In this document: positions 1,567 through 12,139 of the stretch, in pieces
Numbering within the stretch: position 1 is the stretch's first letter
Layout: every line of letters starts with the position of its first letter
Virus record (IMG/VR): IMGVR_UViG_2541047682_000010
From: a virus
Lineage: Duplodnaviria > Heunggongvirae > Uroviricota > Caudoviricetes
Reading direction: 5' to 3' (one strand)
Length of the DNA: 12,139 nt
Notes under the pieces: generated by a model
The model's input: only the letters and a program-made list of their open reading frames with translations
Database searches by the model: none
Told to the model about the DNA's origin: nothing
Position numbers and translations under genes: made by a program

Positions 1567-4500
1567 ATGGGTAAAGGCAGCAGTAAGGGGCATACCCCGC
1601 GCGAAGCGAAGGACAACCTGAAATCCACGCAGTTACTGAGTGTGATCGATGCCATCAGCGAAGGACCGATAGAAGGTCCGGTGGATGGATTAAAAAGCGT
1701 GCTGCTGAACAGTACGCCGGTGCTGGACAGTGAAGGGAATACCAACATCGCCGGTGTCACGGTGGTGTTCCGGGCAGGTGAGCAGGAGCAGACACCGCCG
1801 GAGGGATTTGAATCCTCCGGATCCGAGACGGTGCTGGGTACGGAAGTGAAATATGACACGCCGATCACCCGCACCATCACGTCGGCAAACATCGACCGTC
1901 TGCGCTTTACCTTCGGTGTGCAGGCACTGGTGGAAACCACCTCAAAGGGGGACAGGAATCCATCGGAAGTCCGCCTGCTGGTTCAGATACAACGTAACGG
2001 TGGCTGGGTGACGGAAAAAGACATCACCATTAAGGGCAAAACCACGTCGCAGTATCTGGCCTCGGTGGTGGTGGATAACCTGCCGCCGCGCCCGTTTAAT
2101 ATCCGGATGCGCAGGATGACGCCGGACAGCACCACAGACCAGCTGCAGAACAAAACGCTCTGGTCGTCATACACCGAAATCATCGATGTGAAACAGTGCT
2201 ACCCGAACACGGCACTGGTCGGCGTGCAGGTGGACTCGGAACAGTTCGGCAGCCAGCAGGTGAGTCGTAATTATCATCTTCGCGGGCGCATTCTGCAGGT
2301 GCCGTCGAACTATAACCCGCAGAGGCGGCAATACAGCGGTATCTGGGACGGAACGTTTAAACCGGCATACAGCAACAACATGGCATGGTGTCTGTGGGAT
2401 ATGCTGACCCATCCGCGCTACGGCATGGGGAAACGTCTTGGTGCGGCGGATGTGGACAAATGGGCGCTGTATGTCATCGGACAGTATTGCGACCAGTCGG
2501 TGCCGGATGGTTTTGGTGGCACGGAGCCGCGCATCACCTGTAATGCGTACCTGACCACACAGCGCAAGGCGTGGGATGTGCTCAGTGATTTCTGCTCGGC
2601 GATGCGCTGTATGCCGGTATGGAACGGGCAGACGCTGACGTTCGTGCAGGACCGACCGTCGGATAAGGTGTGGACCTATAACCGCAGTAATGTGGTGATG
2701 CCGGATGATGGCGCGCCGTTCCGCTACAGCTTCAGCGCCCTGAAGGACCGCCATAATGCCGTTGAGGTGAACTGGATTGACCCGGATAACGGCTGGGAGA
2801 CGGCGACAGAGCTTGTTGAAGATACGCAGGCCATTCTCCGTTACGGTCGTAACGTCACGAAGATGGATGCCTTTGGCTGTACCAGTCGGGGGCAGGCACA
2901 CCGCGCCGGGCTGTGGCTGATTAAAACGGAGCTGCTGGAAACGCAGACCGTGGACTTCAGCGTGGGTGCTGAAGGGCTTCGCCATGTACCGGGCGATGTC
3001 ATTGAAATCTGCGATGATGACTATGCCGGTATCAGCACCGGCGGGCGAGTGCTGGCGGTGAACAGCCAGACCCGGACGCTGACGCTCGACCGTGAAATCA
3101 CGCTGCCATCCTCCGGTACCACGCTGATAAGCCTGGTTGACGGAAGTGGCAATCCGGTCAGCGTGGAGGTTCAGTCCGTCACCGACGGCGTGAAGGTAAA
3201 AGTGAGCCGTGTTCCTGACGGTGTTGCTGAATACAGCGTATGGGGGCTGAAGCTGCCGACGCTGCGCCAGCGACTGTTCCGCTGCGTGAGTATCCGTGAG
3301 AACGACGACGGCACGTATGCCATCACCGCCGTGCAGCATGTGCCGGAAAAAGAGGCCATCGTGGATAACGGAGCGCACTTTGACGGCGACCAGAGCGGCA
3401 CGGTGAATGGTGTCACGCCGCCAGCGGTGCAGCACCTGACCGCCGAAGTCACCGCAGACAGCGGGGAATATCAGGTGCTGGCGCGCTGGGACACGCCGAA
3501 GGTGGTGAAGGGCGTGAGCTTCCTGCTCCGTCTGACCGTAACAGCGGATGACGGCAGTGAGCGGCTGGTCAGCACGGCCCGGACGGCGGAAACCACTTAC
3601 CGCTTCAGGCAGCTGGCGCTGGGGCGTTACACGCTGACGGTCCGGGCGGTAAATGCCCGGGGACAGCAGGGCGATCCGGCGTCGGTATCGTTCCGGATTG
3701 CCGCACCGGCAGCGCCGTCTCGGATTGAGCTGACACCGGGCTATTTTCAGATAACCGCCACGCCACATCTTGCGGTTTATGACCCGACGGTACAGTTTGA
3801 GTTCTGGTTCTCGGAAAAACGGATTGCGGATATCAGGCAGGTTGAAACCACAGCCCGCTATCTTGGCACGGCGCTGTACTGGATAGCTGCCAGTATCAAT
3901 ATCAGGCCGGGCCATGATTATTATTTTTACGTTCGCAGTGTGAACACCGTTGGCAAATCGGCATTCGTGGAGGCTGTTGGTCGGGCGAGCGATGATGCGG
4001 AAGGTTACCTGGATTTTTTCAAAGGCCAGATAACCGAATCCCATCTTGGCAAGGAGCTGCTGGAAAAAGTCGAGCTGACGGAGGATAACGCCAGCAAACT
4101 GGAGGAGTTTTCGAAAGAGTGGAAGGACGCCAGTGATAAGTGGAATGCCATGTGGGGCGTCAAAATTGAGCAGACCAAAGACGGCAAACATTATGTCGCG
4201 GGTATTGGCCTCAGCATGGAGGACACGGAGGAAGGCAAACTGAGCCAGTTCCTGGTTGCCGCTAACCGTATCGCGTTTATTGATCCGTCTAATGGCAACA
4301 CAAGACCAATGTTTGTTGGTCAGGGCGATCAGATATTCATGAACGACGTGTTCCTGAAACGCCTGACGGCTCCGACCATTACCAGCGGCGGTAATCCTCC
4401 GGCATTTTCCCTGACACCGGATGGGCGGCTGACGGCGAAAAATGCCGATATCAGCGGTAACGTGAATGCGAACTCCGGGACGCTCAACAACGTCACGATT

Positions 4501-4962
4501 AACGAGAACTGTCGGGTTCTGGGAAAACTGTCCGCGAACCAGATTGAAGGCGATCTCGTTAAAACAGTGGGCAAAGCTTTCCCCCGGGACTCCCGTGCAC
4601 CGGAACGGTGGCCATCAGGGACCATTACCGTCAGGGTTTATGACGATCAGCCGTTTGACCGGCAGATTGTTATTCCTGCGGTGGCATTCAGCGGCGCTAA
4701 ACATGAGAGAGAGCATACTGATATTTACTCCTCATGCCGTCTGATAGTGCGGAAAAACGGTGCTGAAATTTATAACCGTACCGCGCTGGATAATACGCTG
4801 ATTTACAGTGGCGTTATTGATATGCCTGCCGGTCACGGTCACATGACGCTGGAGTTTTCGGTGTCAGCATGGCTGGTAAATGACTGGTATCCCACAGCAA
4901 GTATCAGCGATTTGCTGGTTGTGGTGATGAAGAAAGCCACCGCAGGCATCAGTATCAGCTGA
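1567..4962 (+). CDS. J: Central tail fibre / host specificity protein J (1131 aa)
   Basis: Single long ORF with GGAG 8 nt upstream of the ATG. The N-terminus [54 protein letters not shown] matches my recollection of lambda gpJ, and the length is close to lambda J (1132 aa). Confidence 0.95.
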
Positions 4963-5029: not shown

Positions 5030-5629
5030 ATGCGTAAAGTTTGTGCAGCCATTTTGTCCGCAGCCATTTGTCTGGCCGTATCCGGTGCGCCTGCATGGGC
5101 GTCTGAACATCAGTCCACGCTGAGCGCGGGGTATCTTCATGCCTCGACGAACGTCCCCGGCAGTGATGATCTGAACGGGATTAACGTGAAATACCGTTAT
5201 GAGTTTACGGACACACTGGGGCTGGTGACGTCATTCAGCTATGCAGGAGACAAGAATCGCCAGCTGACCCGTTACAGCGATACCCGCTGGCATGAAGATT
5301 CCGTTCGTAACCGCTGGTTCAGCGTAATGGCGGGGCCGTCTGTGCGCGTGAATGAATGGTTCAGCGCGTATGCGATGGCGGGTGTGGCTTACAGCCGTGT
5401 GTCGACTTTCTCCGGGGATTATCTTCGCGTAACTGACAACAAGGGGAAAAAGCACGATGTGCTGACCGGAAGTGATGACGGTCGCCACAGCAACACGTCT
5501 CTGGCGTGGGGGGCTGGCGTGCAGTTTAACCCGACCGAATCCGTGGCCATTGATATTGCTTATGAAGGCTCCGGCAGTGGCGACTGGCGCACTGACGGTT
5601 TCATCGTGGGTGTCGGTTATAAGTTCTGA
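5030..5629 (+). CDS. lom: Lom, Ail/Lom-family outer-membrane beta-barrel protein (lysogenic-conversion moron)
   Basis: 199-aa ORF with an N-terminal signal peptide (MRKVCAAILSAAICLAVSGAPAWA) and a C-terminal aromatic residue (ends GVGYKF), typical of OM beta-barrels. It sits after J as in lambda, with GAGAGG 6 nt upstream of the ATG. Confidence 0.9.
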   Translation: MRKVCAAILSAAICLAVSGAPAWASEHQSTLSAGYLHASTNVPGSDDLNGINVKYRYEFTDTLGLVTSFSYAGDKNRQLTRYSDTRWHEDSVRNRWFSVMAGPSVRVNEWFSAYAMAGVAYSRVSTFSGDYLRVTDNKGKKHDVLTGSDDGRHSNTSLAWGAGVQFNPTESVAIDIAYEGSGSGDWRTDGFIVGVGYKF

Positions 5630-5682: not shown

Positions 5683-6242
5683 GTGGAGTGGATATGGCAG
5701 CAGTAAAAATCTCAGGTGTGCTGAAAGATGGTGCGGGAAAACCAATACAGAACTGCACTATTCAACTGAAGGCAAAGCGTAACAGCACCACGGTACTGGT
5801 GAACACGGTGGCCTCTGAAAATCCGGATGAAGCCGGGCGTTACAGCATGGATGTTGAGTATGGTCAGTACAGCGTCACCCTGCTGGTTGAAGGTTTTCCG
5901 CCTTCACATGCCGGGACCATTACCGTCTATGAAGGTTCCAGACCAGGTACGCTGAATGATTTTCTCGGTGCCATGACGGAAGATGATGTCATGCCGGAGG
6001 CATTGCGTCGTTTTGAGGCAATGGTGGAAGAAGCGGCACGCAACGCCGAAGCCGCCTCTCAGAGCGCAGCAGCGGCAAAGAAATCCGAAACTGCAGCGGC
6101 ATCATCGAAGAACGCGGCGAAAACCTCAGAAACAAATGCAGCTAACAGCGCACAGGCGGCAGCGTCCTCGCAGACTGCATCGGCAAACTCCGCGACAGCA
6201 GCCAAAAAATCAGAAACCAACGCGAAAAATAGCGAGACAGCC

Positions 6243-6382
6243 GCAAAGACGAGCGAAACCAACGCAAAGTCCAGCCAGACGGCAGCGAAAACAAGCGAAA
6301 CGAATGCCAAAGCCAGTGAAACTGCGGCAAAAAACAGCCAGGTTGCAGCAGCCCAAAGCGAGAGCGCGGCAGCCGGTTCTGC
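6243..6382 (+). repeat. Direct repeat copy 1 (about 140 bp) inside the stf shaft coding region
   Basis: Near-identical to 6432-6571, offset 189 bp (63 codons). Encodes AKTSETNAKSSQTAAKTSETNAKASETAAKNSQ.AAAQSESAAAGS. Confidence 0.75.
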
Positions 6383-6431
6383 GACTTCAGCAGCTGGATC
6401 AGCAACTGCTGCGGCTAACAGCCAGAAAGCT

Positions 6432-6571
6432 GCGAAGACGAGTGAAACTAACGCAAAGTCCAGCCAGACGGCAGCGAAGACCAGCGAAACGAATGCCAAA
6501 GCCAGCGAAACTGCGGCGAAAAACAGTCAGGATGCAGCAGCCCAAAGCGAGAGTGCTGCAGCTGGTTCTGC
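6432..6571 (+). repeat. Direct repeat copy 2 (about 140 bp) inside the stf shaft coding region
   Basis: Near-identical to 6243-6382; same reading frame and same peptide repeat. Confidence 0.75.
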
Positions 6572-7227
6572 AAGCGCGGCGGCTGCTTCTGCCACTGCAT
6601 CAGCCAACAGTCAAAAAGCAGCAAAAACCAGTGAAACCAATGCAAAGACAAGCGAGACTGCAGCGGCGAACTCGGCGAAAGCATCCGCTGCAAGCCAGAC
6701 CGCTGCAAAAGCAAGTGAAGACGCAGCCAGAGAGTATGCAAGCCAGGCAGCAGATCCGTATAAATATGTCTTACAGCCGCTGCCTGATGTGTGGATACCG
6801 TTTAACGATTCACTGGATATGATTACGGGCTTTTTGCCATCATATAAAAAGATTGTTATTGGTGACGACGAAATAACGATGCCTGGCGACAAGATTGTTA
6901 AGTTTAAACGTGCATCGAAAGCAACCTATATTAACAAATCTGGTGTGCTGACAGAGGCTGCCATTGATGAGCCACGATTTGAACGTGATGGCCTGCTTAT
7001 TGAGGGGCAAAGAACTAATCTTCTGCTTAATTCAACAAATCCATCTAAATGGAATAAGTCAGGCAATCTGGAACTCACAGAAATATCCACGGATTCTTTT
7101 AATTTTACTTATGGGAGATTTACTGTAAAAGATACTCTTATTGGTCAGACAAGTGCTATTAATATCGTAACGATTTCTGGCAGTAAAGGGTTTGATGTCA
7201 CAGGTGATGAAAAATATGTGACCATTT

Positions 7228-7232
7228 CATGC
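7228..7232. repeat. IS2 target-site duplication, left copy (CATGC)
   Basis: Identical 5-mer immediately flanks both IS2 termini. IS2 is known to make 5-bp duplications. Confidence 0.85.
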
Positions 7233-7243
7233 TGGATTTGCCC

Positions 7244-8149
7244 CTATATTTCCAGACACCTGTTATCACTTAACCCATTACTGGCTTGCTGCCGCAGATA
7301 TTCCCGTGGCGAGCGATAACCCAGTGCACTATGCGGATGCCATTCGTTATAATGCTCGAACGCCTCTGCAAGGTTCTTTGCTGCCGTTAACCCGTCTGGT
7401 TTGGGCATGACACTGATGTAGTCACGCTTTATCGTTTTCACGAAGCTCTCTGCTATGCCGTTACTCTCCGGACTCCGCACCGCCGTGCTCTTCGGTTCAA
7501 GCCCCAACATCCGGGCAAACTGCCGTGTTTCATTAGCCCGGTAGCATGAACCATTATCCGTCAGCCACTCTACTGGAGACGCCGGAAGCTCGTTGCCGAA
7601 GCGGCGTTCCACCGCTCCCAGCATGACGTCCTGTACTGTTTCACTGTTGAAGCCGCCCGTAGTGACCGCCCAGTGCAGTGCCTCACGGTCACAGCAGTCC
7701 AGCGCGAACGTGACTCGCAGTTTTTCTCCGTTATCACAGCGGAACTCGAACCCGTCAGAGCACCATCGCTGATTACTTTCTTTCACAGCCACTCTGCCTG
7801 TATGTGCCCGTTTCGATGGCGGTACAGCAGGTTTTCGCTCAAGCAACAGCGCATTCTGGCGCATGATCCGGTAAACACGTTTGGCATTGATCGCAGGCAT
7901 ACCATCAAGTTCTGCCTGTCTGCGAAGCAGCGCCCATACCCGACGATAACCATACGTGGGCAGCTCTCCGATAACATGGTGTATACGGAGAAGCACATCC
8001 GTATCATCAGTGTGACGACTGCGGCGGCCATCCATCCAGTCATCGGTTCGTCTGAGAATGACGTGCAACTGCGCACGCGACACCCGGAGACAACGGCTGA
8101 CTAAGCTTACTCCCCATCCCCGGGCAATAAGGGCGCGTGCGCTATCCAC
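7244..8149 (-). CDS. insD: IS2 transposase OrfB (InsD; DDE integrase-like catalytic domain), 301 aa
   Basis: Translation [23 protein letters not shown]...[12 protein letters not shown] is recognised as IS2 InsD. It overlaps insC by 43 nt, where an A6G slippery run (CAAAAAAG on the - strand, about 8149-8156) is the known site of programmed -1 frameshifting that produces the OrfAB transposase. Confidence 0.9.
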
Positions 8150-8472
8150 TTTTTTGCCCGTCCATATTCAACGGCTTCTTTGAGGAGTTCATTTTCCATC
8201 GTTTTCTTGCCGAGCAGGCGCTGGAGTTCTTTAATCTGCTTCATGGCGGCAGCAAGTTCAGAGGCAGGAACAACCTGTTCTCCGGCGGCGACAGCAGTAA
8301 GACTTCCTTCCTGGTATTGCTTACGCCAGAGAAATAACTGGCTGGCTGCCACACCGTGTTGCCGGGCAACGAGGGAGACCGTCATCCCTGGTTCAAAGCT
8401 CTGCTGAACAATTGCGATCTTTTCCTGTGTGGTACGCCGTCTGCGTTTCTCCGGTCCTAAGACATCAATCAT
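8107..8472 (-). CDS. insC: IS2 OrfA (InsC; helix-turn-helix regulator and transposase N-terminal part), 121 aa
   Basis: Translation [56 protein letters not shown]... is recognised as IS2 InsC. The ORF track gives an extended 136-aa frame from 8517; the canonical start is the internal Met. Confidence 0.9.
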
Positions 8473-8563
8473 CTGCTCTCCAATGACTAGTCTAAAAACT
8501 AGTATTAAGACTATCACTTAAATAAGTGATATTGGTTGTCTGGAGATTCAGGGGGCCAGTCTA

Positions 8564-8568
8564 CATGC
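8564..8568. repeat. IS2 target-site duplication, right copy (CATGC)
   Basis: Identical to 7228-7232. Confidence 0.85.
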
Positions 8569-9407
8569 CGTGTAAGAAGTGATGTTGAAAATATAAGGTG
8601 TCGTTTAAGATTTGAACACCATGATGGTTATACTTACACTTTTTTGGGAGATGCTTACCTCAATTTATCAACACTTGTAATTGATAAAACTGGTACTGCT
8701 GCAGACCGTATTATTGCAAAGGCTGTAAAAGATGAGGTTACTGGTTGGATTTTCTATCAGGCTACAATTAATGCACTAGATACAGAGAGCATGATTGGTG
8801 CGATGGTTCAATACGCTCCTGTAAAAGGTTCAGGTACAGCATCTGGAGACTATCTGGATATCGCAACTCCACAAGTGGAAGGTGGATCAAGTGCTTCGTC
8901 ATTTATTGTAACTGATATAACTGCAAGCACTCGCGCAAGCGATATGGTGACAGTCCCAATCAAGAATAACCTTTATAATCTTCCTTTTACGGTTCTTTGT
9001 GAGGTACATAAGAACTGGTATAAAACGCCAAATGCAGCACCGCGTGTTTTTGATACCGGCGGTCATCAAACCGGAGCGGCTATTATTCTTGGCTTCGGTC
9101 GTTCAACAGATTACGACGGATTTCCTTATTGTGATATAGGTTTGGCTAACAGACGGGTAAACGAAAACGCATCGCTTGAAAAAATGGTTATGGGGATGCG
9201 TGTAAAGTCAGATCAGTCTACGTGCTCAGTAAGTAACGGGCGTATATCCAGCGAAAAGAAAGCCACATGGTCCTATATTCAGAACTCCGCAATTATCCGT
9301 ATTGGAGGCCAGACTACAGCCGGGTTGCGTCATTTATTTGGTCATGTCAGGAATTTCAGAATATGGCACAAGGCATTGACTGATGCTCAGATGGGGGAGT
9401 CAATCTA

Positions 9408-9689
9408 ATGAAAGATTTAACACTCAAATTTGCAGACAGGGCCGACTTTTCGGCCTTTATGGATAGCATTGGCTATTATGATGACGAGTCGATGCAGGAT
9501 GATATTCTTATTGACGTGATAGGTAACGTGTACAAAGAAACCGGAGAACTGACTGAAGATGGCGAACCGGTATGTGTTAAGGAAGATGGATATTTTGTAA
9601 ACGTGCGCATCATTAATGATGCAAAAAAATCGTTAATATTCGATGAATACGCGGTTGTAGTTGAACATCAACTTCGTGGCTGGATGTGA
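9408..9689 (+). CDS. Hypothetical small acidic protein (93 aa), translationally coupled to stf
   Basis: The ATG overlaps the stf stop (TAATG). GGGGAG lies 9 nt upstream. Low G+C like the distal stf domain. Asp/Glu-rich. No family recognised. Confidence 0.6.
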   Translation: MKDLTLKFADRADFSAFMDSIGYYDDESMQDDILIDVIGNVYKETGELTEDGEPVCVKEDGYFVNVRIINDAKKSLIFDEYAVVVEHQLRGWM

Positions 9690-9698
9690 GGGAGACAA

Positions 9699-10403
9699 AT
9701 GGCTACATCGACAGTAATTCCAGGAGACATCACCACGTTAAAGGGAGATGTCAGTAAAGCCAAGGAAGATATTTCCTCAATTAACGGAAAAGTATCAACG
9801 CTTCAGGCTGATATGACCAGTGCAAAGCAGGATATCAGCACCAGATACACAAAAACTGAAGTTGATAATAAGCTGAAAAACAAACTGGAAGTGAACGCTC
9901 TGGAAAGCGGTCGTTATGGTGGAGATTTTTACCCGTTGACTGGCCGTGAAGCGTTTTATTTGTGGGGATTGGGCACGACTACAGCGGCGGCAAACCTTTA
10001 TCTTAATCCTGACCCCGCAATTTCGTCTGTGCTGCGGTCAACATCGTCTATCCGCTATAAACATTCAGTAGAGACAATAGATTCAGAGCACGCCGATCTC
10101 ATTTTCAGGATGCGCCCTGTGTGGTACAGGTCACAATGCGAAAATGACAGGCGTGACTGGGGATTCTACGGATTGATTGCCGAGGAAGTAGGAGAAATTG
10201 CCCCTCAGTTTGTACACTGGCGACCAGCTAACGAAGATGATGCACCGGAAGCTATTTCCAGCAATGGCCTTGTTGCCGAAGGTGTAATGTACGAACGTCT
10301 GGTTGTTCCACTGATTCACCATATCCAGAAGCTGACTGAAAGAGTTGATGAACTTGAGTCAGAATTAAAGTTGTTATCCGTTTCCCGAAGCGATATCGGA
10401 TAA
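9699..10403 (+). CDS. Tail-fibre-related protein with a coiled-coil N-terminus and a C-terminal peptidase-S74-like intramolecular-chaperone domain (234 aa)
   Basis: GGGAG lies 6 nt before the ATG. The C-terminal 120 residues carry the characteristic S74 pattern: SSIRYKHSVETID (compare SDxRxKxNI), then RPVWYR, then GLIAEEVGEIAPQFV, then MYERLVVPLIHHIQKLTERVDELESEL. The N-terminus has heptad-like repeats (DITTLKGDVSKAKEDISSINGKVSTLQADMTSAKQDIS). Confidence 0.75.
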   Translation: MATSTVIPGDITTLKGDVSKAKEDISSINGKVSTLQADMTSAKQDISTRYTKTEVDNKLKNKLEVNALESGRYGGDFYPLTGREAFYLWGLGTTTAAANLYLNPDPAISSVLRSTSSIRYKHSVETIDSEHADLIFRMRPVWYRSQCENDRRDWGFYGLIAEEVGEIAPQFVHWRPANEDDAPEAISSNGLVAEGVMYERLVVPLIHHIQKLTERVDELESELKLLSVSRSDIG

Positions 10404-10413
10404 AGGAGGAGTA

Positions 10414-10707
10414 ATGGATATAACACCTTTCCTTCATGCGCTTTGTGCTGTGGCTGCGCAGCTACTGATTGGTCTTTTTACCGGGAACTGGGCTTACGGG
10501 GCGATAGCTGGTTGTACGTTCTTCATTGCGCGTGAACACACCCAGGCAGAATATCGCTGGATTGAAATGTTCGGGCATGGCAAGCGAATGAATATGCCGT
10601 GGTGGGGCGGTTTTGATCCGCGCGCGTGGGATGTGGCAAGCCTGATGGATTTTGCTGTGCCGGTGGTGGCGTGTCTGCTGGTCTGGCTGTTGGTTAATCG
10701 TGGGTGA
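10414..10707 (+). CDS. Hypothetical small membrane protein (97 aa, two to three predicted transmembrane segments)
   Basis: Strong RBS AAGGAGG 7 nt before the ATG. Hydrophobic stretches FLHALCAVAAQLLIGLF, AYGAIAGCTFFIA and FAVPVVACLLVWLLV. G+C is similar to the phage backbone, not the low-GC cassette. Confidence 0.55.
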   Translation: MDITPFLHALCAVAAQLLIGLFTGNWAYGAIAGCTFFIAREHTQAEYRWIEMFGHGKRMNMPWWGGFDPRAWDVASLMDFAVPVVACLLVWLLVNRG

Positions 10708-10717
10708 AAAAAGGTGA

Positions 10718-10837
10718 GCTGTATATGCAACGGAGGAAGAAACCTCGTTGCTGGAAGCCTGGAAGAAGTATCGGGTGTTGCTGAACCGTGTTGATACGTC
10801 AACTGCACAGGATATTGAATGGCCAGCACTGCCGTAG
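10718..10837 (+). pseudogene. tfa: 3' remnant (39 codons) of the tail fibre assembly gene tfa
   Basis: The frame opens right after a TGA at 10715-10717 and reads [39 protein letters not shown]-stop. This matches the conserved C-terminus of lambda-type Tfa as I recall it (..[30 protein letters not shown]..). There is no start codon and no N-terminal Tfa domain. Confidence 0.7.
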
Positions 10838-10934
10838 GGTAAAACATATAAATTCTATAATTAGATGTATCTTTCCATTTACGGCAAGGAAGGGGGCTTG
10901 GAAGACGTAAAGCATCTCACACCGAGATTATTTT

Positions 10935-11525
10935 TTATATGTCAGGTGTCTGAAGTTTTGCTTTGGCTCTTAAAATGGTTTGCCGCGAGGTTTTGAATTC
11001 CCGGGCAATGGCACTTATACTTACACCTGACTTAATTCGTTCGAATACCACCTGTTTCTGTTCTTCATTTAACACAGGTGGTCGACCAAAACGTTTCCCT
11101 GCGCCCCGGGCTCTTACTATCCCGGAATGAGTGCGTTCAAGTAAAAGGTCTCGTTCAAATTCAGCGACTGCTGAAATTACTTGCATCATCATTTTCCCTG
11201 TTGGACTGGTCAGGTCAATGCCCCCCAATGCTAAGCAATGCACTCTGATACCTGTTTCGGTCAGTTGTTCCACTGTTTTCCTGATATCCATTGCATTACA
11301 ACCAAGGCGATCCAGTTTTGTCACAATCAATTGATCACCACATTTCAGACGAGCAAGCAACCGGTTAAAACCAGGACGCTCACTGGTTGCTGCTGAGCCG
11401 CTAATGTGTTCTTCGATTATTTGCTGAGGTTTGATTTTAAAACCTGCACTTTCGATTTCCCGGCGTTGATTTTCGGTGGTCTGATCCAGCGTTGATATCC
11501 GACAGTAAGCAAAAATTCGAGACAT
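10935..11525 (-). CDS. pin: Serine recombinase (resolvase/invertase family, PinR/PinQ-like), 196 aa
   Basis: N-terminal catalytic motif YCRISTLDQ with the nucleophilic Ser, and a C-terminal helix-turn-helix ([20 protein letters not shown]). The sequence matches my recollection of the E. coli prophage PinR/PinQ proteins. Position next to tfa is as in Rac and Qin. Confidence 0.9.
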
Positions 11526-11905
11526 AGTGAGACTCTATACGAAATTGGTGTACATATCATAATGCATATCCAAAAATTATTTCGCTTATTATTGTACATA
11601 TTTGTATGTATACGTTCGAAAATAAACGAATTCGGATGCAGTCCCGTAATTTTGGTGTAACCAAAAATCGATTTTTTGAAAAATGGCTTTAACTCGGTTT
11701 GTTTTTCGAACTCCGGGCGGACTCGAGGAAGACGAATAATAGTGTTGTATGTTATTTCAACCAGATTTTAAGTTGTTTGGTCGTGGAAAAGTGGAGCAAA
11801 ATGTTGTTAAAGTGGAAAAATGGTAAAAAAAGTAGGTTGTTGCGGAATAACGTAGTTGTTGATATTTTTTTAATGCATTGAAAAATTATTTTTCAGGGGG
11901 GGGTA
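11526..11905. promoter_or_regulatory. AT-rich intergenic region upstream of pin: presumed pin promoter, with short direct repeats (TGTACATAT at about 11548 and 11595) and a G8 homopolymer at 11896-11903
   Basis: No convincing ORF. Very AT-rich. Lies 5' of pin on the - strand and 3' of the small - strand ORF. I could not place -35/-10 elements with confidence. Confidence 0.3.
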
Positions 11906-12139
11906 TTACACTTTACCATTTAAATTTTGGTTGTCTTTAAGAACTGATATCGCTGTTTGTAATAATTCTTTGTTATCCAGCCATGACTTTTTCTTTATGT
12001 TTCCTTCAATGTAATCAAGCAATGTTCTGGTATTGATAGGTCTTCCCTGTTTTGCTACTTCCACGACAGCATCTCCCAGGATAATTCTGACTTCAGGAAG
12101 CTGCGCAGGGAACCACTTTAGGGTGTCTTTTGATTTCAT
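11906..12139 (-). CDS. Small prophage protein (77 aa if the ATG at the window edge is the true start), YnaE/YdfK-like by synteny
   Basis: Complete ORF on the - strand whose ATG is the last three bases of the window. Its RBS and any upstream extension cannot be seen. The position next to pin matches pinR-ynaE and pinQ-ydfK in E. coli K-12. The synteny assignment is from memory and was not verified. Confidence 0.5.
   Translation of the reverse strand: MKSKDTLKWFPAQLPEVRIILGDAVVEVAKQGRPINTRTLLDYIEGNIKKKSWLDNKELLQTAISVLKDNQNLNGKV

Follow-up and report, generated by a model that had tools for sequence, protein, structure and literature searches.

The recombinase gene pin, which lies next to the tail-fibre genes of a lambdoid Escherichia coli prophage, is best explained as a relic: it is probably a catalytically crippled resolvase of a decayed mini-Tn3 element, which never had an invertible fibre segment. 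The gene was analyzed in a stretch of 12,139 bp, below called the window, that represents the tail end of the prophage (IMG/VR virus record IMGVR_UViG_2541047682_000010). The analysis shows the identity and family of the gene, the anatomy of the element around it, the cysteine at position 76 of its product (Cys76), the erosion of its recombination sites and the relaxed selection on it. A preliminary description of the window had started from the premise that Pin is an invertase of the Mu/P1/e14 type (the Din family). This premise could not be upheld, as the relatives of the enzyme are Tn3-type resolvases and it has a relic of a res site of its own. Pin is unconnected with the switching of the adjacent tail-fibre genes and is, relative to these, the orphan that the preliminary description had proposed.

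Identity and distribution of pin

The gene (10935..11525, - strand) encodes a small serine recombinase of the PinR/PinQ type of 196 amino acids (aa). The open reading frame (ORF) is uninterrupted, as had been stated before, and its product contains the Pfam domains Resolvase (residues 1-144, E 2.5e-36) and HTH_7 (residues 147-190), with the nucleophile motif YCRIST at Ser11. Compared with K-12 PinR and PinQ, the protein shows 100 and 99% identity, respectively; it is 84% identical to the TnpR of a plasmid mini-element, and 39, 36, and 33% identical to PinE, Gin and gamma-delta resolvase, respectively. The window gene is the pinR/pinQ gene of lambdoid prophages. K-12 PinR (Rac, b1374) and PinQ (Qin, b1545) have the same neighbours, stf, tfa and, on the opposite strand, ydfK/ynaE, and they share Cys76, the relics of terminal inverted repeats and an AGGAA duplication with the window copy. 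Whereas no difference was found in the gene, the prophages differ: the one in the window is related to a prophage near prfC in S88/APEC O1, its stf contains an IS2 and its tfa is a stub.

Of 5426 complete E. coli genomes, 2876 (~53%) contain pin together with ~310 bp of upstream sequence, and the pin module was also found in 11 Escherichia phage records, including 2H10, mEp460_ev081 and Tritos. Both 2H10 and mEp460 are viable lambdoid phages that carry the gene, and Tritos is a viable phage as well. The K-12 prophages Rac and Qin share the order stf>tfa><pin<ydfK with 2H10 and mEp460; each has a single fibre set, without an inverted segment, and in all of these and in APEC17 the spacing between tfa and pin is 97 bp. 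The 3' end of pin faces the fibre genes, so that pin converges on tfa. Because K-12 Rac, Qin, 2H10 and mEp460 have this layout and no segment either, nothing has been lost from the window in particular, and the missing invertible segment is the expected state, neither a loss nor an assembly problem.

Pin and the Din family of invertases

When PinR was compared with Gin and with gamma-delta resolvase, scores of 105 and 82 bits were obtained, respectively. The corresponding scores were 312 and 112 bits for PinE and 96 and 92 bits for a bona fide transposon TnpR of the PinR family. The Gin and gamma-delta query sequences are consistent with PDB alignments. The distance between PinR and Gin is about that between PinE and a transposon resolvase, and members of the Din family are mutually ~60-80% identical. 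The Pin of the window falls outside the Din family.

The members of that family (PinE of e14, Gin of Mu, Cin of P1 and Hin of Salmonella) belong to the same superfamily and have the same two-domain layout as PinR. Like the Din invertases, PinR adjoins phage tail-fibre genes, and the name Pin is shared. Unlike the Din systems, the window has neither 26-bp hix/gix/pix sites nor opposed fibre gene ends, and whereas the 5' end of a Din invertase gene abuts the invertible segment, it is the 3' end of pin that converges on tfa. The recognition helix also differs, with SRQTILRA in PinR compared with (S/V)STLY(K/R) in the Din proteins. No similarity was found when pinE and the window pin were compared at the nucleotide level. 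The 5' part of pinE carries a recombinational enhancer; a crude scan of pin for pairs of Fis sites failed on the pinE positive control as well. A 'pinR' described in Salmonella Senftenberg (10.1101/2025.10.27.684867) was set aside, since its fljAB context suggests a hin-like gene that, judged by this context, shares only the name.

A search for hix/gix-like 26-mers, which had been recommended earlier, was run within the window and gave none above chance. The full 26-bp Din consensus (TTnnCnnAAACC-NN-GGTTTnnGnnAA) and the e14 pix half-site had no match in the window at up to 3 mismatches, and the core AAACCNNGGTTT (AAACC-NN-GGTTT) had 1 match at 2 mismatches, located in gene J, where 5.5 would be expected. 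In a general search of the window for inverted repeats, the only long pair was formed by the ends of IS2. This agrees with the earlier statement that no invertible fibre segment can be recognized.

The half-site-like 8-mer AAACCTCG that the preliminary description had pointed out at 10740-10747, with the remark that it might be due to chance, is indeed found there and at chance level, but it is not the only copy. A second, inverted copy lies at 10986-10993 (- strand), inside the 3' end of pin. Among 200 shuffles, 13 contained two copies, and no extension into a dyad was seen at either copy. The pair was rejected as crossover sites because of its chance level and the missing dyad, and because the 238-bp interval would cut pin.

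Pin belongs to a family of transposon resolvases

A database search yielded thousands of relatives at 64-85% identity, some of which are named 'resolvase'. They are encoded by plasmids as well as chromosomes, in Enterobacterales, Vibrio, Shewanella, Methylomonas and others. Eighty loci were fetched, 70 of which are diverged family members. At 22 of these 70 loci a full Tn3-type transposase is encoded ~160 bp upstream of the recombinase gene and divergently from it, and relatives at 77-81% identity are likewise encoded divergently from Tn3-type transposases. The transposases of the family contain the domains DDE_Tnp_Tn3 (E 3e-148) and DUF4158, and many of the transposase-bearing loci are bounded by the 38-bp inverted repeat (IR) GGGGTCCGCTTGGAAAACGGAAAATATCCTACGCTAAG. 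The layout in these transposon relatives is the classical tnpA<-res->tnpR, and the transposon family was identified in 2268 plasmid records.

The res array of the family was defined from the 330 bp upstream of the gene, aligned in 69 loci. Before the ATG, it consists of a 26-bp dyad with the consensus TGtCCGAAAcCG-gt-CGGTTTCGtACA, a 32-bp site with the consensus TGTCCGAAAGTnAGTGAaaTtaaTTTCGtACA, a TATAAT box and a proximal site. Half-sites with the consensus TGTMCGAAA occur at six fixed positions in 59 of 67 family loci, with means of 13-18 bits; the half-site of Tn3 is TGTCYNNTA. By analogy with Tn3, the three sites of the family would correspond to the res sites I (the crossover site), II and III.

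The closest relatives of PinR among the TnpR/res systems of the Tn3 family, for which Tn3/gamma-delta is the paradigm, are 77-85% identical and are found on pUTME-13 and pPKF11. They have the three-site res array before the gene and a 38-bp GGGG...TAAG IR 8 bp past its stop codon. Compared with these relatives, the element in the window lacks a transposase, shows decay of its IRs and of res sites I and II, and encodes Cys in place of the catalytic Arg; it also lies in a phage genome, whereas the elements of the closest relatives are on plasmids. The element of pUTME-13 is a full transposon of ~3.8 kb without a passenger, and its tnpR is 96.8% identical to the pPKF11 copy at the nucleotide level.

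On the plasmid pPKF11-144kb (locus L004, 5994-6845) lies an IR-tnpR-res-IR mini-element of 852 bp, in which the res sites are good and Arg76 is present. This mini-element adjoins a RelE/ParE toxin-antitoxin pair on ColV-type plasmids and is found at ~200 positions on plasmids of E. coli. Backbone sequence that is common to >5000 plasmids begins at its right boundary, and the boundaries of the plasmid elements also fall at the IR ends. The parent transposon may be Tn5403-like; the records read only 'Tn3 family transposase'.

A putative mini-element around pin

In the window, pin appears to sit in a decayed miniature element of 834 bp (10892-11725), as indicated by the arrangement of the features described below. 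Directly outside its two ends, the 5-bp sequence AGGAA is present on the left (10887..10891) and again on the right (11726..11730), and 5 bp is the length of the target duplication in Tn3-family transposition. The duplication and its flanks are identical in K-12 Rac, Qin, S88, 2H10, mEp460 and the APEC17 lineage (85% identical).

The left end of the element is formed by a relic of the 38-bp terminal IR of the Tn3 family (IR-L; 10892..10926, + strand), with its outer GGGG toward tfa and at a distance of 8 bp from the stop codon of pin. Local alignment of IR-L with GGGGTCCGCTTGGAAAACGGAAAATATCCTACGCTAAG resulted in a score of 32.5, compared to 23.5 ± 2.6 for shuffles (maximum 34.5), and contains a 3-bp deletion. 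The IR has the same position, 8 bp past the stop codon, in the pPKF11 mini-element and in the pUTME-13 transposon. The relic of the second terminal IR (IR-R; 11687..11725, - strand) has its outer end toward ydfK and agrees at ~27 of 38 positions with the right IR of the pPKF11 element, GGGGTCAGTTTGGAATTCGGAAAATAAACCATGTTAAG, when the two are compared base by base. The identity between the window and the pPKF11 element is 69% in IR-L, 84% in the gene, 73% in res and 67% in IR-R, and drops to 36-46% outside both IRs (46% in the left flank and 36% in the right flank).

Upstream of pin, the res array of the window is recognizable by position and homology, and of its half-sites the proximal one alone still has the quality seen in the family. 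The relic of site III (11536..11560, - strand) adjoins the start codon, and its proximal half-site TATACGAAATTG (11536-11547) scored 12.9 bits, compared to a family mean of 14.2 and a minimum of 7.3. Between sites II and III lies the hexamer TATGAT (11556..11561, - strand), the probable -10 element of the pin promoter; TATaAT is a conserved column at this position in the 69-locus alignment. The eroded relic of site II, of the 32-bp spacing class, was located at 11567..11598 (- strand), with half-sites of 5.3 and 4.5 bits; for these two half-sites the family has means of 12.9 and 13.9, and its 5th percentiles lie at 8.7 and 9.2. The relic of site I, CGTTCGAAAATAAACGAATTCGGATG, occupies the position of the 26-bp crossover site (11613..11638, - strand) and is eroded as well. 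With 6.3 and 3.9 bits, its half-sites are below the lowest scores in the family, 7.9 and 9.3, and the whole dimer scored 10.2 bits, where the family has ~32 and the best dimer in the shuffled window has 7.9 ± 3.5. When the 12-kb window was scanned for dimers with a position weight matrix, no res-like site above the shuffles was found besides the relics upstream of pin.

A tblastn search with the TnpA of the family found nothing in the window or at any prophage locus, and the element is therefore non-autonomous. It resembles the TIMEs and other non-autonomous derivatives of Tn3, which, in the parts of that work consulted (PMC4133298), are likewise short, have IRs of the Tn3 family and lack tnpA; such elements and the one in the window were presumably moved in trans by a related transposase. 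Compared with the TIMEs described there, the window element carries a resolvase gene and res as cargo, and its prophage copy is no longer mobile. A clean 5-bp duplication was not seen at the elements of pPKF11 or pUTME-13, so the mobility of the mini-element as a unit rests on the duplication in the prophages.

An imperfect palindrome, ATTTTGGTGTAACCAAAAAT, was observed at 11649-11668, between the relics of site I and IR-R. The K-12/APEC17 lineage has retained only part of it (ATTTTGGTGAGACCCAAAAT), and it could be a leftover of the lost tnpA-proximal region.

Loss of a catalytic arginine

Codon 76 of pin (11298..11300, - strand) is TGT and encodes Cys, where the family has CGT. It replaces the residue R71 of Tn3/gamma-delta, in the motif KLDRLG-R. 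Arg is present at this position in all 70 diverged family members and in 114 of the 120 top database matches, while Cys76 was found in all lambdoid prophage and phage copies examined, including the APEC17 lineage, with the exception of one mosaic.

In Tn3 resolvase, the residues Y6, R8, S10, D36, R68 and R71 are crucial, and R71A and R71K gave no recombination and an at least 1000-fold slower cleavage (PMC2794168). Pin does not have the full essential set: Y7, R9, S11 and R73 are present, and R71 is replaced by Cys76. The position of D36 is taken by Glu39, as in the whole family. The preliminary description had called the gene intact on the basis of its catalytic Ser motif and its helix-turn-helix; this holds for the ORF and for both of these features, but not for the catalytic Arg.

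The exceptional copy lies in a prophage adjoining prfC (L091, 4001-4591; GCA_910593615.1) and is a mosaic pin with Arg76. From the middle of site II to about codon 180 it is of the plasmid type, and its flanks, site I and C-terminus are of the prophage type. The pattern shows that gene conversion has taken place between plasmid mini-element and prophage copies.

Selection on the gene and its upstream region

Between the two Cys76 lineages, the ratio of nonsynonymous to synonymous substitution rates (dN/dS) is 0.38, calculated from 23 synonymous and 31 nonsynonymous differences. The value of the Cys76 clade is below 1 (Fisher p = 0.001), and compared with transposon TnpR, for which dN/dS is 0.03-0.05, selection on this clade is about ten-fold relaxed. 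As derived from the distances, the nonsynonymous branch to the prophage copy is ~3 times that to the plasmid copy.

Site II has 7 mismatches in 32 positions between the two prophage lineages, which is about the synonymous rate. The stretch with the promoter and site III (11526-11562) has 1 mismatch in 37 positions and is the most conserved non-coding part. The recognition helix of Pin, TSRQTILR, fits the family pattern T[TS]RQTI[LM]R. Although the numbers are small, this pattern is suggestive of a protein that still matters, plausibly via binding to the DNA of its own promoter, and that no longer serves in resolution.

Weighing of alternative explanations

Several points speak against a decayed mini-Tn3 origin or against a crippled enzyme. 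Taken alone and compared with the canonical IR, IR-R scored 23.5, which equals the shuffle mean and is not significant. A search of 5426 genomes of E. coli, 50,697 phage records and viral and metagenome contigs gave no empty target site (junction CATTTACGGCAAGGAAGACGAATA). The insertion is for this reason not demonstrated but deduced, from the IRs, from the duplication and from where the homology ends. Two apparent matches to an empty site with the right flank only were rejected as truncated pin genes. The assignment of the res sites in the PinR family follows from the analogy with Tn3, and the effect of the change from Arg to Cys is extrapolated from R71A and R71K of Tn3. In both Cys76 lineages the residues Y7, R9, S11, Q15, Q20, R50, D72, R73, R125 and R131 are intact, and together with the purifying selection they make some activity-dependent function possible.

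The alternative that survives best, although we regard it as rather unlikely, is that PinR/PinQ is an active invertase that acts in trans on the 1.8-kb P segment of e14, with the chimeric products StfE2/StfP2 blocking T2 adsorption. Kirigo et al. (2025, Nucleic Acids Res; PMC12529663) overproduced PinQ and observed protection from T2 via e14 inversion; according to these authors, the inversions seen in databases occur only in e14. T2 survivors among PinQ-overproducing cells carry the inverted P segment, inversion determined by quantitative PCR rises from ~30% in the wild type to 88% with pCA24N-pinQ, and deletion of pinQ is reported to reduce inversion and survival. The last two observations also count against a crippled enzyme, and if PinQ is the direct catalyst of e14 inversion, the term 'catalytically crippled' is wrong. 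The purifying selection on the ORF and the intactness of most catalytic residues fit this alternative as well.

Against it, the pinE single mutant of the same paper, which is pinQ+ pinR+, is reported to be locked in one orientation, and no pinE deletion with pCA24N-pinQ is among the strains listed for Table S4. An in-vitro assay was not found in the sections examined of PMC12529663, and the authors do not mention Cys76. The suggestion of the preliminary description that the enzyme acts on a site outside the window is thus met by an experimental claim for PinQ on e14, but one that relies on overproduction in a pinE+ host. The skew to 88% could reflect selection or an indirect effect on PinE. 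PinQ itself has Cys at the position of the catalytic R71, is 39% identical to PinE and differs from Din in its recognition helix. The pix sites of e14 do not fit the inferred binding motif of the PinR family, and none of them is among the top dimers of the e14 region. Moreover, free-living lambdoid phages carry the gene, and their hosts need not have e14.

A second alternative, which appears very improbable, is that Pin still functions as a resolvase on its own res relic and resolves prophage or phage-plasmid multimers or cointegrates of related Tn3-family elements. The three-site array can still be recognized at the right positions, the gene is intact and under purifying selection, its close plasmid relatives keep good res sites, and in the prophage copy of L091 Arg76 has been restored by gene conversion. 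However, both half-sites of site I in the window are below the minimum of 59 family loci and the dimer is at chance, site II diverges about as fast as neutral sequence, and there is no catalytic Arg. Furthermore, a single prophage does not provide the two directly repeated res copies on the same molecule that resolution needs.

That pin was once a fibre invertase, whose segment was deleted when the S74-type module or IS2 replaced the stf-tfa end, is hardly credible: the fibre region of the window is indeed rearranged (IS2 in stf, a rare module and a tfa stub), but the unrearranged K-12 Rac, Qin, 2H10, mEp460 and APEC17 have a single stf-tfa pair with the same pin junction, the 97-bp spacing and AGGAA are identical in all of them, it is the 3' and not the 5' end of pin that faces the fibre genes, and the protein is outside the Din family.

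Genes and rearrangements around pin

The window begins with the tail genes K and I, which are followed on the + strand by J (1567-4962), lom (5030-5629) and stf, which starts at 5688. An ORF of 234 aa for an S74-chaperone fibre protein with a Peptidase_S74 domain is located at 9699-10403 (+ strand), followed by a membrane ORF of 97 aa (+ strand) for which no family was found. The last gene of the window is ydfK (11906-12139, - strand). As stated in the preliminary description, all fibre-related ORFs, namely J, lom, stf, a 93-aa ORF, the 234-aa S74 ORF and the 97-aa ORF, are on the + strand, which was confirmed by the ORF list and by comparison with S88. A scan of the whole window against Rfam gave no matches.

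The tfa remnant that had been recognized between the fibre ORFs and pin (10718..10837, + strand) consists of the last 39 codons and the stop codon of the tail-fibre assembly gene. Its 39-residue translation and the annotation of the equivalent stretch in S88 as partial tfa with a missing N-terminus agree with that assignment. Compared with the tfa 3' ends of lambda and many further phages, the remnant shows 94-99% identity; it lies outside the mini-element and marks the old end of tfa.

The nearest complete genomes are S88, APEC O1 and ~20 others, with a match of 98.9% and the same arrangement in a prophage adjoining prfC. An insertion of 1331 bp, which we take to be IS2 and whose orfA product is InsC-like, splits stf at 7233-8563 and is flanked by a 5-bp target duplication (7228-7232 and 8564-8568). 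It is absent from S88, APEC O1 and other close relatives. The stretch at 8564-10707 is a rare tail-fibre end module that comprises the C-terminal part of stf, with a weak match to a GTA head-spike-fibre domain, and the 93-aa, 234-aa S74 and 97-aa membrane ORFs. It stands in for the usual C-terminus of stf and most of tfa, of which the 39-codon stub remains, and 24 of 5426 genomes carry most of it. The central part of stf, which is rich in Ala, Ser and Thr, contains internal direct repeats of ~250 bp with 83% identity (6228-6665), which were seen as off-diagonal BLAST matches against S88. On the other side of pin, the similarity to most other pin loci (K-12, mEp460, APEC17) ends at ~11838, and the next 67 bp, which extend as far as the stop codon of ydfK (11839-11905), are shared only with copies of the 2H10/A3/S88 type. 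A recombination joint is located in this stretch, just downstream of ydfK.

Proposed origin and role of pinR and pinQ

According to the explanation that we favour, the element is a non-autonomous member of the Tn3 family with the structure IR - tnpR - res - IR and without a transposase. In an ancestral lambdoid phage it would have entered the target AGGAA, located between tfa and ydfK, by a single transposition, and it would have been inherited with the phage module since then. The enzyme of its relatives is expected to bind the three dyad sites with their TGTMCGAAA half-sites in the ~100 bp upstream of its own gene and, between directly repeated copies of res, to resolve cointegrates, using the 26-bp site I. 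It may also repress its own promoter, as the analogy with Tn3 suggests. In the prophages the element would be dead both as a transposon and as a resolution system, with its degenerate IRs, its drifted res sites I and II and the change from Arg to Cys. As the ORF, the recognition helix, the proximal half-site and the -10 hexamer are kept and dN/dS is below 1, the protein would survive mainly as a DNA-binding, self-regulating relic with residual strand exchange at most. That catalysis was lost and DNA binding retained is what we infer from the features of the locus, and the same applies to any role that the protein may have today.

A more specific role can be suggested tentatively. PinR/PinQ may be a domesticated, catalytically disabled resolvase that works only as a sequence-specific DNA-binding protein. 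As such it would repress its own promoter, and it might possibly act in trans on incoming related transposons and plasmids, by repression of the tnpA/tnpR promoters at their res sites, or on some host genes. A preprint in which PinR is claimed to repress antioxidant genes (10.1101/2022.03.29.486199) gives a hint of regulation, to which little weight is attached. If PinR/PinQ is domesticated in this way, the published anti-T2 defence would need PinE as the catalyst, with PinQ acting indirectly.

In our literature searches no description of pinR/pinQ as a decayed mini-Tn3 resolvase with eroded res sites and IRs and with Cys was found. A pinR without an invertible segment is as such ordinary, and the origin from a mini-Tn3 resolvase is the new part. 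The genes pinR and pinQ are present in E. coli K-12 and, as a type, in about half of the complete E. coli genomes. They have been taken for invertase genes for decades, and 'DNA invertase' is their routine annotation. The probable origin from a mini-Tn3 element, the decayed res and the loss of the catalytic Arg in all copies examined but that of L091 alter this annotation, and they bear on the reading of the experiments of 2025, in which a new class of phage defence is founded on the presumed invertase activity.

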